Source of the DNA: a virus
IMG/VR virus record: IMGVR_UViG_3300044611_001420
Reading direction: 5' to 3' (one strand)
DNA length: 64,000 nt
In this document: one piece after another, positions 46,563 to 54,293 of the stretch
How positions within the stretch are numbered: position 1 is the stretch's first letter
How the letters are laid out: each line of letters opens with the position of its first letter
Made by a program: the position numbers and the translations under genes
Notes under the pieces: generated by a model
Databases searched by the model: none
What the model saw: only the letters and a program-made list of their open reading frames with translations
What the model was told of the DNA's origin: nothing

Positions 46563-46650
46563 GCGAGTGAGACTTGGTAGTCAGAGGAGTCTTATAAACT
46601 CTTTCCGCCAGATTAGCGGCTTTGACCTGGTTCGAATCCAGGCACTCGTA
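46563..46650 (+). tRNA. Atypical tRNA, anticodon UAU (Ile?), long variable arm
   Basis: GCGAGTG/CACTCGT acceptor, CT-TAT-AA loop, CCGC/GCGG variable stem, CCTGG-TTCGAAT-CCAGG T arm. Confidence 0.7.
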
Positions 46651-46703
46651 TTGCTATTCGTTATTTGCGAATAGCGAATAACTCATAATTTATATAAATA
46701 GTT

Positions 46704-47099
46704 ATGAGTTATTTACAATTTAATATGCCTAGAAAAAGAAAAACTTCTGCTGATTGTGATATAATACGAGAGTATCAACGCAATTGGTTGAAAGACAAAC
46801 TTAAAAATGACCCCGAGTACAAAGCAAGGCATTATGCCAACAGGCAAAATCGAGCAAAACAAAACAAAGAAAATTTAACTAATTTAAAAGAAAATATTTC
46901 TTGTTCTGCTTGTGGAGAATATCATCCCTCGTGTTGTATGGACTATCATCATTTAGATCCAAGTGTAAAAGAAAAGGGTGTGTCTCAAATGATACAAGGA
47001 AATTCTTGGCAAAAAATTGAAGAAGAAATTTCTAAATGTATTTTAGTATGTTCAAATTGTCATCGTAAAATACATGAAGGTCTAATCACGCTCGTTTAG
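46704..47099 (+). mobile_element. HNH homing endonuclease (Zn-binding) in tRNA cluster
   Basis: CSAC...DYHHLDP...KCILVCSNCHRKIH; TATAAATA at 46693. Confidence 0.8.
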
Positions 47100-47161
47100 C
47101 AATCTGGGAATGCAATCGTCTCATAAACGATAGAAGGTCGGATCGTAACCGACAACGAGCA
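47090..47161 (+). tRNA. tRNA-CAU (Met or Ile2)
   Basis: GCTCGTT/AACGAGC acceptor; ATCGT-CTCATAA-ACGAT; unusual T loop ATCGTAA. Confidence 0.8.
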
Positions 47162-47162
47162 C

Positions 47163-47191
47163 TTGACAATCAAAGCACACTCTGCTATGAT
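47163..47191 (+). promoter_or_regulatory. sigma70 promoter
   Basis: TTGACA-N17-TATGAT. Confidence 0.75.
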
Positions 47192-47201
47192 TGTCTTATA
47201 A

Positions 47202-47276
47202 GGGACTGTTGCTTATTGGTTAAAGCCCACTGCTTATAACGGTGTGAACAGAGTTCAATTCTCTGCAGTCCTACCA
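47202..47276 (+). tRNA. tRNA-Ile(UAU)
   Basis: GGGACTG/CAGTCCT; CACTG-CTTATAA-CGGTG; encoded CCA. Confidence 0.85.
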
Positions 47277-47277
47277 A

Positions 47278-47620
47278 GCGAGTATGGTGGAATCGGTAGA
47301 CACACCAGACTTATGAAAATTGAGCCTCATTTGAGAAATCTTATGAGTGTAATTCCTCAAATTCGGTGAAACCTGTAAAATGGCAATACCGAGCGAAGTT
47401 GCAAGACAGTTGGAAAGACAACGGCTACCCAATGTGCTTCTAGAGAGGGTTGGAATTATCTAGAAAATGCAAAACGTGTAGAGACTAGACGGGGAACACC
47501 TAAACTGAAAGGTATGGTGAAGGTATAGTCCAGACCACAAACCGAAAGGGTAGTGAAAACTATAGTGGTAAGAAAATCTGTTGGGCATTGCCCGTGGGAG
47601 TTCAAGTCTCCCTACTCGCA
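47278..47620 (+). tRNA. trnL: tRNA-Leu(UAA), split by a group I intron (exons 47278-47312 and 47573-47620)
   Basis: GCGAGTA/TACTCGC acceptor; spliced loop CAGA-CT-T|AA-AA-TCTG; long variable arm. Confidence 0.9.
47313..47572 (+). ncRNA. Group I self-splicing intron (260 nt, trnL-UAA type)
   Basis: Follows U, ends in G; IGS GAG; core elements AATTCGGTGAAAC, GGCAATACCGAGC, GTAGAGACTAGACGGG, AAGGTATAGTCC. Confidence 0.9.
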
Positions 47621-49810: not shown

Positions 49811-49884
49811 GAATTTGACAATTTTAAACTAATAATTTAAAATTACATATATAAATAATAATTATTTTATTTTTTATAGAAATT

Positions 49885-50082
49885 ATGTCTGATACTGTAA
49901 ATCAAATTGCCTCTGCTTTTGAAACTTGGAAACAAGAAGATGAAAAGTTTGAGAATGGAAATGGTTCTGCTGGAACTAGAGCAAGAAAAGCACTTCAAGA
50001 AATTGCAAAACTTGCCAAAGTTCGTAGAGCAGAAATCTCAGAAACAAAAAATTCAAGAAAAGAAGAAAAAGCAGACTCTTGA
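49885..50082 (+). CDS. Hc1-like (histone H1-like) small DNA-binding protein
   Basis: KFENGNGSAGTRARKALQEIAKLAKVRRAEI; TATAAATA at 49850. Confidence 0.75.
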   Translation: MSDTVNQIASAFETWKQEDEKFENGNGSAGTRARKALQEIAKLAKVRRAEISETKNSRKEEKADS

Positions 50083-50085
50083 TTT

Positions 50086-50093
50086 TATAAATA
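50086..50093 (+). promoter_or_regulatory. T4-type late promoter for the leader transcript
   Basis: Exact TATAAATA. Confidence 0.7.
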
Positions 50094-50114
50094 AACACAT
50101 ACGATATTAAAACA

Positions 50115-50216
50115 ATGACTTACCTTCATACACAATCTAAGAGTGATTATCGTCCCATTACCTGCTGGTTTATGGGCGAATCCCTCTTGGTTGCGAATAT
50201 GGTAAGTCAAAGTTAA
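50115..50216 (+). CDS. Putative leader peptide containing all 20 amino acids
   Basis: MTYLHTQSKSDYRPITCWFMGESLLVANMVSQS*; lies within alternative RNA stems upstream of a terminator. Confidence 0.7.
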   Translation: MTYLHTQSKSDYRPITCWFMGESLLVANMVSQS

Positions 50217-50239
50217 AAGAACAAACCATAAAAGCAATC

Positions 50240-50275
50240 AAGAGGGAGAATCCAAAAGGTTCTCCCTCTTTTTTT
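50240..50275 (+). terminator. Intrinsic terminator of putative attenuator
   Basis: AAGAGGGAGAATC-CAAAA-GGTTCTCCCTCTT followed by a T run. Confidence 0.9.
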
Positions 50276-50282
50276 ATGCCTT

Positions 50283-50435
50283 GTGCCACTTGTTCAACTG
50301 GTCGTATCATTTTCCGCTGGGGTCCAAACCCTGGTATATTACTTGAGTCGGTGGGGGAACGAGACCCCAAGTGCCTGGGACCACTTCTGGAACTGGCACA
50401 AACCACTTGCCCCGCAACGGGTTCCGTGGTATTCT
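50283..50435 (+). promoter_or_regulatory. Tandem dyad-type promoters for the tRNA array
   Basis: GTGCCACTT-GTTC-AACTGG with TATATT at 50335; GGACCACTT-CTGG-AACTGGCAC with TTGCCC-N17-TATTCT at 50430. Confidence 0.7.
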
Positions 50436-50440
50436 TAAGG

Positions 50441-50478
50441 GGTGGTTGAGAGACCACCAGCACCTTGACAACTGAATA
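50441..50478 (+). promoter_or_regulatory. rrn-like boxB/boxA antitermination signal
   Basis: GGTGGTT-GAGA-GACCACC hairpin, then GCACCTTGACAACTGAATA. Confidence 0.6.
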
Positions 50479-50492
50479 ATTACCACATTATT

Positions 50493-50564
50493 GGGACATT
50501 AACTCAGCGGTAGAGTATCCGGCTTTTAACCGGTTAGTCCTCGGTTCGAATCCGAGATGTCCCA
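50493..50564 (+). tRNA. tRNA-Lys(UUU)
   Basis: Cloverleaf; CT-TTT-AA loop. Confidence 0.92.
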
Positions 50565-50568
50565 TCGT

Positions 50569-50659
50569 GGGAGAGTGGCTACTGCTGGCAATATGTGTGG
50601 CTGCGGTCTGTAAAACCGTTACATAAGAACCATCGGGGGTTCAATTCCCTCCTCTCTCA
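50569..50659 (+). tRNA. tRNA-Tyr(GUA), enlarged D arm
   Basis: GCGGT-CTGTAAA-ACCGT. Confidence 0.8.
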
Positions 50660-50663
50660 CCTT

Positions 50664-50736
50664 GGCCTCTTAACTCAGCGGTTAGAGTGTCTGCCTGTCT
50701 AGCAGAAAGTCAGGGGTTCGAATCCCCTAGGGGTCG
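50664..50736 (+). tRNA. tRNA-Asp(GUC)
   Basis: TCTGC-CTGTCTA-GCAGA; G73. Confidence 0.92.
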
Positions 50737-50793
50737 TTGGAGATTTATCTCCATATTCCAGGTAATCTAACATTATTTTAGATTACTCTGCGT

Positions 50794-50865
50794 GGTCCCA
50801 TCATCTAAGGGTTAGGATACCAGATTTTCAATCTGGGCATACGGGTTCGAATCCCGTTGGGACTA
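50794..50865 (+). tRNA. tRNA-Glu(UUC)
   Basis: CCAGA-TTTTCAA-TCTGG. Confidence 0.92.
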
Positions 50866-50869
50866 CCTT

Positions 50870-50943
50870 GGGAACATAGCTCCAACTGGTAGAGCACAGG
50901 GCTGAAGACCTTGGTGTTGTCGGTTCGAATCCGACTGTTCCCA
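50870..50943 (+). tRNA. tRNA-Phe(GAA)
   Basis: CAGGG-CTGAAGA-CCTTG. Confidence 0.92.
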
Positions 50944-51064
50944 CTTGACCTTTATGGTCACGGAGATTCACTTCCTCCGTTATGAAACTTTGGTTGGTTA
51001 GTGATAGGTTTTTCAGTCCGAAAACTGAAACTGGTAGGTTGTTGATATCGACTCCTACCTTGAT

Positions 51065-51136
51065 GGAATCGTAGCTCAGTGGTAGAGCACTCGGCTGATA
51101 ACCGAGCGGTCACAAGTTCAAATCTTGTCGGTTCCA
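51065..51136 (+). tRNA. tRNA-Ile(GAU)
   Basis: CTCGG-CTGATAA-CCGAG. Confidence 0.95.
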
Positions 51137-51190
51137 TTGTTGTCTTGAAGCAACTTAAATCGCACTTAGGATGCTTCAAGACAACATTAA

Positions 51191-51279
51191 GGAAGTGTGG
51201 CAGAGTGGCTTATCGCAGAATCCTGCTAAGATTCCGTGTCAAGTAATTGGCACCGTTGGTTCAAATCCAACCACTTCCG
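51191..51279 (+). tRNA. tRNA-Ser(GCU)
   Basis: GAATC-CTGCTAA-GATTC; long variable arm; G73. Confidence 0.92.
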
Positions 51280-51281
51280 TT

Positions 51282-51366
51282 GGAGAGTTGTCCGAGTGGT
51301 TTATGGTGAGATCTTGGAAAGGTCTTGTGTGTAACAGCACCAGAGGTTCGAATCCTCTACTCTCCG
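51282..51366 (+). tRNA. tRNA-Ser(GGA)
   Basis: AGATC-TTGGAAA-GGTCT; long variable arm. Confidence 0.9.
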
Positions 51367-51368
51367 TT

Positions 51369-51440
51369 GGCAGTGTAGTTCAGTGGTAGAACAAGAGATT
51401 CATACCCTCTATGTCGGTAGTTCAATTCTACCCACTGCCT
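51369..51440 (+). tRNA. tRNA-Met(CAU)
   Basis: GGCAGTG/CACTGCC; TT-CAT-AC loop. Confidence 0.85.
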
Positions 51441-51441
51441 T

Positions 51442-51513
51442 GTGTCGTTAGCCTAGTGGTTAAGGCAGTAGTTTGTGGAACTACCTAGATGGGTTCAATT
51501 CTCATACGACACA
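51442..51513 (+). tRNA. tRNA-His(GUG)
   Basis: GTAGT-TTGTGGA-ACTAC; A73, upstream base T. Confidence 0.88.
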
Positions 51514-51555
51514 TTGAATTCTAATAAATAATGTTATTAGGGTTCAATTTTTAAA

Positions 51556-52095
51556 ATGAAACATCATCATCATATTATACCAAAACATATGGGAGGTTCT
51601 GATTCTACAGAAAACTTAATCGAATTGAGTATTACTCAACACGCAATGTTTCATTATTGTAATTGGAGATTGTGGGGTAAAGTAGAAGATGAATTGGCTT
51701 GGAGGGGGTTGGTAAAATATTTACCAAAAAAAGAAATTATTTCCAAACTTATTGCGGAAAGTAATAGAAATAGACCCCACTCCCAATTATCTAAAGATGT
51801 TAGTAGTAAACTTCTTAAGGAAAGGTGGAATGACCCAGAATTCAAAATAAAACAAATAGAATTATTGAGAAAAATGTCTCCTAATGCAAGATTGTTGGCT
51901 TGCACTCCTGATGCTATTGAAAAGAAAAAAAAGACATTACAGAGAATAGGACATCAACAAGGAGAAAAAAATTCTATGTATGGTAAAATGTGGATTACTG
52001 ATGGAACAAAAGAAGGTTCTTATCGAATAGATAAAAATCAAGATATTCCAGAAGGGTTTAGAAAAGGTAGAGTATTATCAAATCCCGCCCGATAA
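51556..52095 (+). mobile_element. HNH homing endonuclease in tRNA array
   Basis: HHIIPKHMGGSDSTENLIELS..QH...H; C-terminal KNSMYGKMWITDG...IPEGFRKGR. Confidence 0.85.
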
Positions 52096-52157
52096 GCATT
52101 GTGGTGATGCAGCAGTTTAGTAAACTGCAGAGAACAGTTCAATTCTGTTATTGGGCT
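52087..52157 (+). tRNA. tRNA-Thr(AGU)
   Basis: GCCCGAT/ATTGGGC; GCAGT-TTAGTAA-ACTGC; AACAG-TTCAATT-CTGTT. Confidence 0.8.
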
Positions 52158-52190
52158 CTTAACTATCTGGAAATTCCAGATAGTTCAAAT

Positions 52191-52264
52191 GTTCAGGTGG
52201 CAGAGTGGTCAAATGCGGAAGTCTGCAAAACTTCTTATCGTGGGTTCAAATCCCACCCTGAACT
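52191..52264 (+). tRNA. tRNA-Cys(GCA)
   Basis: GAAGT-CTGCAAA-ACTTC; U73. Confidence 0.92.
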
Positions 52265-52269
52265 CCTAA

Positions 52270-52341
52270 TCCAGAATCGACTAACTGGCAGGTCAGCACC
52301 CTTTGAAGGTGTACGTCTAGGTTCGAATCCTAGTTCTGGAA
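52270..52341 (+). tRNA. tRNA-Gln(UUG)
   Basis: U1-A72; GCACC-CTTTGAA-GGTGT. Confidence 0.9.
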
Positions 52342-52345
52342 CTAT

Positions 52346-52419
52346 GCCCGATTGATGGAATTGGTATACATACTTGCCTTAGAAGCAAGGTTTTACAGGT
52401 TCGAGTCCTGTATCGGGCA
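52346..52419 (+). tRNA. tRNA-Leu(UAG), short variable loop
   Basis: CTTGC-CTTAGAA-GCAAG; variable region only GTTTT. Confidence 0.88.
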
Positions 52420-52423
52420 CCTA

Positions 52424-52495
52424 GCAGGATTGGTGTAATTGGTAGCACGAGAGTCTCCAAAACTTTTAGTAGAAGTTCAAATCTTCTATCCTGTG
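52424..52495 (+). tRNA. tRNA-Trp(CCA)
   Basis: AGAGT-CTCCAAA-ACTTT; G73. Confidence 0.92.
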
Positions 52496-52499
52496 CCTT

Positions 52500-52573
52500 G
52501 TCCTCTTAACTCAGTGGAATAGAGTGCTTGGCTACGAACCAAGAAGTCGCAAGTTCGAATCTTGCAGAGGACG
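52500..52573 (+). tRNA. tRNA-Arg(ACG)
   Basis: CTTGG-CTACGAA-CCAAG. Confidence 0.93.
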
Positions 52574-52688
52574 TTGACTTTCCTTAGAAAGTCATATATA
52601 CTATTGATAGAGGTTAAGTCCCTGTTATATCCTTATGAGATATATCACACTTAATCCATCAAACACACAAACACACAGGAGTAAAAGA

Positions 52689-52892
52689 ATGTCACCTTAC
52701 GAACTACGATTTGAGATTTTTAAGCAAGCATATGCATTTGCTAACGATAAGTTTAGCATTGAATATGATACTGCCCGTTGTTGGAATGAAAATTCTATGA
52801 ATACGGTTAAGATGGATTATCCAGATTTTCCTACATATGAGTATATTGAGCAACTTGCAGAGAAAATCAACACTTTTGTAAGTTCTAAATGA
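52689..52892 (+). CDS. Small hypothetical protein within the tRNA array
   Basis: AGGAG RBS; MSPYELRFEIFKQAY...YPDFPT...AEKINTFVS; own promoter TTGACT-N17-TATACT at 52574. Confidence 0.75.
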   Translation: MSPYELRFEIFKQAYAFANDKFSIEYDTARCWNENSMNTVKMDYPDFPTYEYIEQLAEKINTFVSSK

Positions 52893-52931
52893 TAAAATAG
52901 GGTGATAACACCCTTTAAAGATAGATTATAA

Positions 52932-53018
52932 GGAAGGTCAATCCGATTGGTGACGGAACCGCTCTTGAAAAGCGTTGAGGTGTTAAAGCCCTTGGGAGTT
53001 CGACTCTCCCACCTTCCG
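52932..53018 (+). tRNA. tRNA-Ser(UGA)
   Basis: CGCT-CTTGAAA-AGCG; long variable arm; G73. Confidence 0.9.
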
Positions 53019-53039
53019 TTGCTTCTTATGAAGCATAAT

Positions 53040-53111
53040 GCCCTTGTAGCACAATGGTAGTGCATCTCACTTGTAATGAGAAGGTTGCAAGTTCAAATCT
53101 TGTCGGGGGCT
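53040..53111 (+). tRNA. tRNA-Thr(UGU)
   Basis: TCTCA-CTTGTAA-TGAGA. Confidence 0.93.
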
Positions 53112-53147
53112 TGACAGAATTTCGATTCTGTCTTACAATCAAATAAT

Positions 53148-53222
53148 GCGAAATTAATTCAGCGGTAGAATGTCTGCCTTCCAAGCAGAACGTCAGGAGT
53201 TCGAATCTCCTATTTCGCTCCA
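53148..53222 (+). tRNA. tRNA-Gly(UCC)
   Basis: TCTGC-CTTCCAA-GCAGA; encoded CCA. Confidence 0.93.
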
Positions 53223-53297
53223 GGGTGATTAACTCAGTGGTAGAGTTTCTCGTTTACACCGAGACAGTCGGGGGTTCGAATCCCTCATCACCCACCA
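53223..53297 (+). tRNA. tRNA-Val(UAC)
   Basis: TCTCG-TTTACAC-CGAGA; encoded CCA. Confidence 0.93.
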
Positions 53298-53371
53298 CGG
53301 GATGTAGCTCAACTTGGTAGAGTGCTTGATTTGGGTTCAAGATGTTGCAGGTTCAAATCCTGTCATCCCGA
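53298..53371 (+). tRNA. tRNA-Pro(UGG)
   Basis: C1-G72; CTTGA-TTTGGGT-TCAAG. Confidence 0.93.
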
Positions 53372-53410
53372 CTTGGAGAACTAAATATCTCCAAATACTA
53401 CAAATTCATT

Positions 53411-53566
53411 ATGTCCTTAATTTCACAAAGAGATAGAGAAGTTGTAATTGAAGCACTGGACTTTTATCTTTTCAATAAAAAATTTGATTTTACTGAAGAA
53501 AAAAGAATGGAGTTAAATTCACTTCTGAATTGGATTAAAATCGAATACAATAAGAATGAAAATTAA
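53411..53566 (+). CDS. Small hypothetical protein
   Basis: MSLISQRDREVVIEALDFY...; the tracked start lies inside tRNA-Pro. Confidence 0.6.
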   Translation: MSLISQRDREVVIEALDFYLFNKKFDFTEEKRMELNSLLNWIKIEYNKNEN

Positions 53567-53717
53567 TCTTTGGTACTGTAAAGAAATGAAGCAATGGAGA
53601 TGGACTTTATGTGAAGATTCTCGTCCAATTGTTAAACAAGAATCAGGACAAAGAGAAGATTTACGAGATGCTATGAATGACGTAGCAAATACTGTTGAGT
53701 ATTTAATGAATACTTGA
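53556..53717 (+). CDS. Small hypothetical protein (53 aa, below the track cutoff)
   Basis: MKINLWYCKEMKQWRWTL...QESGQREDLRDAMNDVANTVEYLMNT. Confidence 0.6.
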   Translation: MKINLWYCKEMKQWRWTLCEDSRPIVKQESGQREDLRDAMNDVANTVEYLMNT

Positions 53718-53726
53718 CATTCTTAT

Positions 53727-53798
53727 TCCCCTGTAGCTCAGCGGTAGAGTCGTCGGCTGTTAACCGATTTGTCGCAAGTTCGAATCTTGCCGGGGGAG
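53727..53798 (+). tRNA. tRNA-Asn(GUU)
   Basis: GTCGG-CTGTTAA-CCGAT; G73. Confidence 0.93.
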
Positions 53799-53821
53799 TT
53801 GGATATAAATTATCCAAATAT

Positions 53822-53896
53822 CGTGGGGAAGTGTAACGGTTGCACAGAAATCTCATAAGCTTCAGGTTGGTGGTTCGATTCCACCCCCCGCCACCA
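53822..53896 (+). tRNA. tRNA-Met(CAU), initiator-like acceptor end
   Basis: C1xC72 mismatch; CT-CAT-AA loop; encoded CCA. Confidence 0.8.
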
Positions 53897-53900
53897 AAAT

Positions 53901-53973
53901 GGGGGATTAGCTCAATTGGTAGAGCAGAGTCTTTGCAAGGCTAAGGTTAGGAGTTCGAGTCTCCTATCTTCCA
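53901..53973 (+). tRNA. tRNA-Ala(UGC)
   Basis: G3-U70; TT-TGC-AA loop. Confidence 0.93.
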
Positions 53974-54009
53974 CTTTACAAAAATCAGATTCTTTGATAC
54001 TATATAATA

Positions 54010-54235
54010 AGTTCAAGAGGATGTGACCTCTATATTCCAGGACATCGGGGCAGTACCGATTATCTCCATTTCTTGGGGATAAATTAGAATCGACTGGGGT
54101 TTATGTTGTATCTGTTGACGGGACAAAAAACAAACGCAAACAAAATTGTTGCATTCACTCGTCAGACTGCTTTAGTCTGACCTAAAATGAGTGAAGGGGG
54201 TTTGTAAGTTTCCTTCTGATCCAAAACTTGTACTG
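54010..54235 (+). ncRNA. ssrA: Circularly permuted (two-piece) tmRNA; outer ends approximate
   Basis: Acceptor piece ...GAC-ATCGG-GGCAGTA-CCGAT-TATCTCC-A (ends 54068), then coding piece GGGGATA...CGAC (starts 54075); G3-U70; tag frame 54136-54180 ANKIVAFTRQTALV*. Confidence 0.88.
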
Positions 54236-54237
54236 GA

Positions 54238-54293
54238 GGACACTTTATCAAGTGTCCTTTTTTTGCTTCAGGGGCACTGAGAGGTGCTATGAT
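54238..54293 (+). promoter_or_regulatory. Dyad promoter element (perfect palindrome copy)
   Basis: GGACACTT-TATC-AAGTGTCC; TATGAT at 54288. Confidence 0.7.

Follow-up and report, generated by a model that had tools for sequence, protein, structure and literature searches.

Between a late promoter and an array of 24 tRNA genes followed by a tmRNA, the window analyzed here (64,000 nucleotides, part of a 122,923-base virus record) carries a short open reading frame (ORF) in which every amino acid is represented, and the question raised by this arrangement is what such an ORF could do for the genes that follow it. A sequence-only reading had proposed a leader peptide whose translation governs an attenuator. 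We treat the source as a T4-like cyanophage, as suggested by its tRNA block, which is closest to those of the cyanomyoviruses S-PM2 and S-CREM1, and by its T4-type late promoters, which lie on one strand of the window only (all eight copies of TATAAATA are on the plus strand); relatives of the window come mainly from aquatic viromes. The leader and its attenuator occur once in the whole record, and the locus is laid out as follows.

50086..50093, plus strand: T4-type (gp55-type) late promoter TATAAATA; the ATG lies 18 to 22 nt on in most homologs
50115..50216, plus strand: leader ORF of 33 codons and 20 amino acids, with AAAACA and no Shine-Dalgarno (SD) motif ahead of it
50115..50177, plus strand: putative sensing zone, codons 1 to approximately 20 or 21, with 15 amino acids and Gly at the edge, as delimited by a stall-position folding model
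50181..50209, plus strand: segment 2, with segment 1 (protector) or segment 3 (antiterminator) as its predicted partner; antiterminator strands 50181-50194 (outer) and 50198-50203 (inner)
50225..50252, plus strand: segment 3; antiterminator strands 50225-50230 (inner) and 50234-50247 (outer)
50240..50276, plus strand: predicted intrinsic terminator 3:4 with U-run, 52 nt past the stop codon (mostly 49 to 62 nt in homologs)
50312..50340, plus strand: putative internal sigma70-like promoter 1, with extended -10 TGnTATATT and a weak -35
50407..50435, plus strand: putative internal sigma70-like promoter 2, TTGCCC, 17 nt, TGnTATTCT
50460..50479, plus strand: rrn-type boxA antitermination motif, a 17/20 match to the picocyanobacterial 16S-23S ITS boxA
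50492..53974, plus strand: array of 24 tRNA genes with an inserted HNH gene
54019..54268, plus strand: permuted tmRNA (54019-54174) and the strong terminator closing the array

The sensing zone doubles as segment 1 of the protector hairpin, and positions 50240-50252 within segment 3 also form the 5' arm of the terminator. The late promoter at 50086 and the strands of the protector, antiterminator, and terminator helices were all found where the sequence-only reading had placed them, as was the 33-codon ORF with 20 amino acids by codon 28 and 27 different codons among its first 28; its caveats (the lack of an SD motif, the position of the Val, Ala, and Asn codons within or beyond segment 2, and the presence of internal promoters) were likewise correct. 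A terminator scan from the upstream late promoter at 49850 to the attenuator found no terminator. Under that promoter lies the gene for a conserved 65-amino-acid Lys/Ala-rich protein (49885-50082) with no PHROG match, and tRNA clusters usually adjoin its relatives.

The array encodes, in order, tRNAs for Lys, Tyr, Asp, Glu, Phe, Ile, Ser, Ser, Met, His, Thr, Cys, Gln, Leu, Trp, Arg, Ser, Thr, Gly, Val, Pro, Asn, Met, and Ala. The claim that its 24 tRNAs, accompanied by a tmRNA, cover all 20 amino acids holds once the tRNA at 50569, called Arg(GCG) by ARAGORN, is read from its CTGTAAA loop as Tyr(GUA). This tRNA-Tyr is atypically long (50569-50661), and in many relatives, too, ARAGORN miscalls it as Arg(GCG) or misses it. 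The tRNA-Thr at 52087-52158, which overlaps the end of the HNH gene (51556-52095), has the anticodon AGU, as it does in several relatives; such an A34 is rare in bacteria outside Arg tRNAs. After tRNA-His, an AT-rich hairpin with a U-run (51512-51548; -13 kcal/mol) is a possible weak terminator or processing site, and the permuted tmRNA, a two-piece molecule with a cyanobacterial-type tag ending in ALV, is found upstream of the leader in some relatives. A separate upstream tRNA group (46563-47560), with Ile-UAU twice and Met-CAU, has its own late promoter (46693), an HNH gene, and a group I intron (47303-47554), probably within tRNA-Leu-UAA, and its tRNAs read AT-rich codons of the phage that are largely kept out of the leader.

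An extended -10 motif recurs between terminator and array, giving one or two sigma70-like promoters in most homologs. These would bypass the attenuator, which would then add late transcription rather than act as the sole gate, its control being confined to late read-through. The boxA motif stands directly before tRNA-Lys, is conserved in most homologs, and occurs once in the 122,923-base record; its 17/20 match to the boxA of the picocyanobacterial rrn ITS (PMC9769826) has a chance expectation of 0.01, and it precedes an untranslated operon, which suggests that the 3.7-kb, mostly untranslated array may borrow the rRNA antitermination or processing system of the host.

The leader family and its RNA structure

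Homologs were sought from three anchors: the upstream gene, terminator motifs, and a boxA plus tRNA-Lys pattern that ignores the leader. The same layout was found at 222 loci, a redundant set that yields 107 different peptides of 24 to 37 codons. Selection on promoter, first ATG, and terminator gave peptides with 15 to 20 amino acids, an ATG 18 to 22 nt past the promoter, a U-run 51 to 58 nt past the stop codon, and, almost always, tRNA-Lys next; the viral loci found through boxA and tRNA-Lys had a leader and a terminator at every site with enough upstream DNA. From lineage to lineage, the peptides differ almost completely in sequence but keep their length, diversity, and RNA geometry, and one subfamily has a conserved short core. 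The comparison of regions upstream of tRNA arrays that had been proposed with the sequence-only reading recovered diverse in-frame ORFs and a covarying 2:3 helix.

A BLASTN search with the window's leader against cultured phages gave chance matches only, and S-PM2 was reached through the leader of a relative. The S-PM2 leader (L211:5041-5145) is annotated only as the antisense S-PM2p160 (L211:4864-5220), a probably spurious gene call overlapping both the leader and the attenuator; those of S-CREM1 (SCREM1_59) and phage B3 (gp50; L214:4932-5024) were entered by gene callers as hypothetical proteins. The S-CRM01 leader (L213:467-547) is unannotated and unrelated in sequence to the others, with a perfect 20-bp antiterminator, a z score of -11.5, and its G-run in segment 2 instead of segment 3. 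The B3 and S-CRM01 leaders form a second attenuator subfamily with a G-rich segment 2, and that of B3 is made up of a Lys-, Asn-, Asp-, and Trp-rich unit in three imperfect copies. All three Kyanoviridae named in PMC9964418 as having more than 20 tRNAs are among the cultured members. Short leaders of 24 to 27 codons precede the differently ordered arrays of L258, L224, L250, L252, and L377, in which Asn, Pro, Ala, and Arg-UCU come early; those of L224, L250, and L252 are without a canonical TATAAATA. No comparable element was found in the stretches examined from S-CBWM1, S-H9-2, KVP40, and LR745206, and one candidate, in Vibrio phage 2.275.O, was discarded (z score of -1.3, no matched helices, no adjacent tRNA).

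Among the 455 ATG ORFs of 20 to 45 amino acids in the window, the leader alone reaches 20 amino acids, and the simulation suggested at the outset puts the probability that 28 random codons cover all 20 at 6e-5 to 4e-4. The description of the leader as pan-amino-acid fails for the family: all 20 amino acids are present in 13 of the 107 homologous peptides, Val is missing from 56%, and in the window itself Glu, Val, Ala, and Asn lie outside the sensing zone. Selection on the codons beyond the zone to complete the set is at best weakly supported (3.1 new amino acids versus 2.5 with shuffled bases). Across the family, zones contain 11 to 19 amino acids, mostly 15 or 16, compared with a mean of 10.8 in 20-residue stretches of the window's proteins; therefore, it is the diversity of the zone that is selected, and the count of 20 is partly incidental.

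Several patterns indicate that the leader ORF is under selection for translation. When nearest neighbors are compared, 26 of 34 indels in the sensing zone are multiples of 3, the count for the spacer beyond the stop codon being 7 of 91; pN/pS is 0.35, with changes mostly at third positions; and the spacing from promoter to ATG is fixed across homologs. From this coding selection we infer that the leader is translated. An SD motif is present in 1 of 115 leaders (14 of the window's 49 long genes have one), an A-rich AAAACA context precedes the ORF in 65 of 115 homologs, and the start codon lies inside the protector hairpin. In RNA runs, contigs of relatives make up small shares, and the leader is covered in three, in a form that gives neither strand, ends, nor level.

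The predicted energies are -40.2 kcal/mol for the 1:2 region, -30.6 for 2:3, and -20.2 for 3:4, the z score of the whole leader is -8.2 relative to shuffles, and the protector hairpin 1:2 is predicted in all members shown. Segment 2 lies within the ORF, the antiterminator excludes the terminator, and the two strands of 2:3, on either side of the stop codon, covary: in 51 distinct sequences, 92% of cells are paired and 11 of 19 pairs show two-sided changes, counts that are inflated by the relatedness of the sequences, and pairing falls to 42 to 60% when the partner is slid as a control. In an alignment-free swap among 11 lineages, cognate 2:3 duplexes averaged -26.3 kcal/mol and swapped duplexes averaged -17.8 kcal/mol (p<1e-5); the cognate partner was likewise favored for 1:2 (-20.6 versus -15.1 kcal/mol) and for 3:4. 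No Rfam family, the T-box included, matched the leader at gathering score, the best hit (E of 0.05) being far below the cutoff. The conserved geometry, the coding selection, the covarying antiterminator, and the sequence-unrelated version in S-CRM01 together lend strong comparative support to the attenuator logic that had been proposed.

The positions at which a stall might be sensed were modeled by folding the transcript downstream of the ribosome and cutting it at the terminator loop, before segment 4, as a proxy for cotranscriptional folding. In all 82 leaders modeled, stalls with the A-site codon up to approximately 19 to 21 gave the antiterminator and stalls beyond gave none, with the switch point approximately 13 codons ahead of the stop codon in 82 of 82; in the window, the result was stable for footprints of 8 to 14 nt. 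The zone here comprises Met, Thr, Tyr, Leu, His, Gln, Ser, Lys, Asp, Arg, Pro, Ile, Cys, Trp, and Phe; Gly21 is borderline, and Glu22, Val26, Ala27, and Asn28 are predicted to lie beyond it and so would not be sensed, since only stalls up to approximately codons 19 to 21 free segment 2. The earlier statement that a stall for almost any charged tRNA frees segment 2 would thus apply to codons 1 to approximately 20, with their 15 amino acids, and not to Glu, Val, Ala, and Asn. In equilibrium folds of the full transcript, the terminator prevails in many members and no switch is seen; therefore, switching must depend on kinetics, as it does in trp.

Codons of the sensing zone and the tRNA genes downstream

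On a tree of linked non-zone DNA, 33 independent contrasts between zone amino acids and the tRNA block agree and 7 oppose; the pooled p value of 2e-5 is optimistic, given that contrasts share branches across amino acids. Swaps of leader and block among 13 lineages gave p values of 1e-4 to 1e-3. The strongest contrast is that of Pro (5.7 agree versus 0.1 oppose), and no other single amino acid is significant alone in the independent contrasts, Pro itself possibly being so. The Tyr codon before Trp has disappeared mainly from leaders whose block no longer includes tRNA-Tyr (53/4 versus 3/7), that tRNA having been lost or moved upstream of the promoter, with examples in L103, L072, and L244. Zone Arg codons are CGY in 95 cases and AGA in 1, compared with 72% AGR in phage genes, and the sole AGA belongs to L258, whose block holds the tRNA-Arg(UCU) that elsewhere is usually upstream; zone Ile codons are never ATA. 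The choice among isoacceptors (CGY and not AGR, ATY and not ATA) follows the downstream and not the upstream tRNAs. The amino acids repeated in the B3 leader (Lys, Asn, Asp, Trp, and Ile) are those of the first five annotated tRNAs of the B3 block, and S-CRM01, which was found after the test had been set up, matches at 9 of 11 (p=0.02). Exceptions to tracking are Cys, kept without a tRNA-Cys in the block in 24 of 63 cases, and Asn and Val, which show none; Asp, Ile, Lys, Ser, His, Gln, and Trp are present in at least 95% of zones, whatever the small changes in the array. As judged by these comparisons, the conserved property is a 15- to 16-valent sensing zone whose content tracks the tRNAs encoded downstream. 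Of the two triggers first put forward, starvation or host anticodon nucleases, such tracking favors tRNA supply over general amino acid starvation.

The same attenuator could nevertheless act as a general gauge of translation speed or starvation, its codon diversity averaging inputs such as amino acid, nitrogen, or energy shortage and ribosome damage, with the match to the block reflecting shared ancestry. This explanation, which is closest to the earlier pan-amino-acid reading and to the E. coli toiL leader, a precedent for a multipurpose uORF (PMC12121999), would fit the predicted effectiveness of any stall in codons 1 to 20, the seven near-invariant amino acids, and the failure of Cys to track. 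We consider it unlikely, however, because contrasts and lineage swaps track block content, because the CGY and ATY choices follow the downstream tRNAs, and because an amino acid shortage would not be relieved by more tRNA. Also conceivable, and highly improbable in our judgment, is a minor timing or dosage device in which polymerase outruns the ribosomes to give a fixed read-through while internal promoters supply most of the tRNA. One or two sigma70-like promoters do lie past the terminator in most members, and coupling of transcription to translation is not universal in bacteria, uncoupling having been shown in Bacillus subtilis and predicted more widely (PMC7858274); its tightness in cyanobacteria is uncertain. 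A diverse, block-matched, frame-preserved ORF would, however, be needless for a fixed leak.

We give scarcely any credence to the idea that the ORF encodes a small late protein with a function of its own, that the ordinary terminator behind it insulates the tRNA operon, and that the other pairings are incidental: the pN/pS, the conserved core of one subfamily, and the annotation of SCREM1_59 and B3 gp50 as hypothetical proteins are what a protein would lead one to expect, but between lineages the peptides have hardly any sequence in common while retaining length, diversity, and RNA geometry, the 2:3 pairing covaries across the stop codon, and the peptide has no PHROG family. Equally faint is the prospect of a translation-independent RNA switch bound by a protein or small molecule, or of a terminated 180-nt RNA released to act in trans (compare rnTrpL; PMC6614838), with the ORF secondary, since the frame-preserving indels, third-position bias, and amino acid tracking of the block need translation and no Rfam family matches, notwithstanding the very stable structure and the lack of an SD motif.

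A probable multivalent stalling attenuator and its relatives

The explanation that we favor, and hold to be probable on the basis of comparative sequence analysis and modeled folding, is a multivalent attenuator, driven by ribosome stalling, that senses when the tRNAs supplied by the array run short and closes a feedback loop late in infection. Its input would be the decoding speed at approximately 15 kinds of codon, mostly with one or two codons each, and its output would be the tRNA/tmRNA array. Late RNA polymerase would start at TATAAATA, where the promoter motif is observed, and a ribosome would translate the leader, as its coding selection suggests. With fast decoding, the ribosome is predicted to cover segment 2, so that 3:4 pairs and terminates transcription; if no ribosome is present, the 1:2 hairpin would likewise leave 3:4 free to form. 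A ribosome lingering at codons 1 to approximately 20 for want of a charged tRNA would instead allow 2:3 to form before segment 4 is made, and polymerase would read through into the boxA-led array, whose new tRNAs may relieve the stall in a negative feedback loop. The likeliest trigger would be loss of host tRNAs late in infection, whether through anticodon nucleases, general degradation, or lost host transcription, because more tRNA would cure tRNA loss and not amino acid shortage. For the more specific proposition that the leader is a tRNA-pool sensor, its ORF listing the codons of its own block and evolving with that block so that destruction of any of approximately 15 tRNAs, by host defenses or by the infection itself, calls up late transcription, we regard the chances as even. 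Against the model stand the single codons, which stall more weakly than the runs of trpL and hisL, the lack of an SD motif, a start codon enclosed in the protector hairpin, the dependence on kinetics where the terminator prevails at equilibrium, the uncertain coupling of transcription to translation in cyanobacteria, the internal promoters that would bypass the switch, and the imperfect tracking.

Enterobacterial attenuators include trpL, hisL, pheL, and leuL and the multivalent leaders of thrL and ilvGMEDA. With these, the present element shares a short ORF over segments 1 and 2, the alternative helices 1:2, 2:3, and 3:4, an intrinsic terminator beyond the reach of a ribosome at the stop codon, and a stall, here predicted, that frees segment 2. 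The testable features of a ribosome-mediated attenuator (ORF, three helices, control codons) are all present; the classical amino acid-operon type does not accommodate a leader in which 27 of 28 codons differ and which precedes tRNA genes. Whereas trpL, hisL, thrL, and ilvL have runs for one to three amino acids, approximately 15 are represented here, mostly by single codons; the output is tRNA and tmRNA and not enzymes, the element is phage encoded under a T4 late promoter, and leader content follows array content. The pheM attenuator of E. coli pheST controls a synthetase; feedback on charged-tRNA supply is common to both systems, but pheM responds to one amino acid, and the leader described here would control tRNA genes. 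Some T-box riboswitches have been reported upstream of clostridial tRNA genes, and they, too, choose between terminator and antiterminator by tRNA status; a T-box, however, binds one uncharged tRNA directly and without translation, whereas the ORF here is under coding selection. In toiL, the uORF of E. coli topAI-yjhQ, stalls at many positions flip the RNA structure (PMC12121999), as is predicted here, but toiL controls translation and Rho termination in an antibiotic response, compared with the intrinsic terminator, tRNA genes, and tRNA-matched codons of the phage element.

Published work supports the view that host tRNAs are depleted in infection and that phage tRNAs rescue the loss (PMC10264068 and PMC11726456), and a role of phage tRNAs as replacements is described in PMC10264068 and in reports on PARIS (PMC11464382), a retron (PMC11555353), and a Synechococcus tRNA-Leu (PMC11726456). 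These reports give the biological reason for the array; the passages and abstracts consulted treat tRNA function, and no demand-driven control of transcription was found in them. The words leader, attenuation, and terminator are absent from the S-CREM1 genome paper. The statement that no equivalent has been described stands, in that no attenuator on phage tRNA genes was found in a literature search that drew mainly on open-access journals.

Whether near-complete phage tRNA sets serve codon compensation or the replacement of depleted host tRNAs is a long-standing question, which a sensor wired to the array makes directly testable. The match of leader codons to the downstream and not the upstream tRNAs, with CGY and ATY used and AGA and ATA avoided, favors replacement as the role of this block and codon compensation as that of the upstream group. 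The element is present in the cultured models S-PM2, S-CREM1, S-CRM01, and B3, where it has been unannotated, called hypothetical, or hidden under an antisense call, and it would bear on whether ribosome-coupled attenuation works in cyanobacterial cells; the leader could also serve as a compact reporter of tRNA depletion. To judge from sequence and modeled folding, late production of additional tRNAs by this virus is probably reserved for times when ribosomes lack them. A tRNA-pool sensor, if that is what the leader is, would amount to a demand-driven counterdefense against anticodon nucleases, and its codon list would also show which tRNAs are attacked in cyanobacteria.
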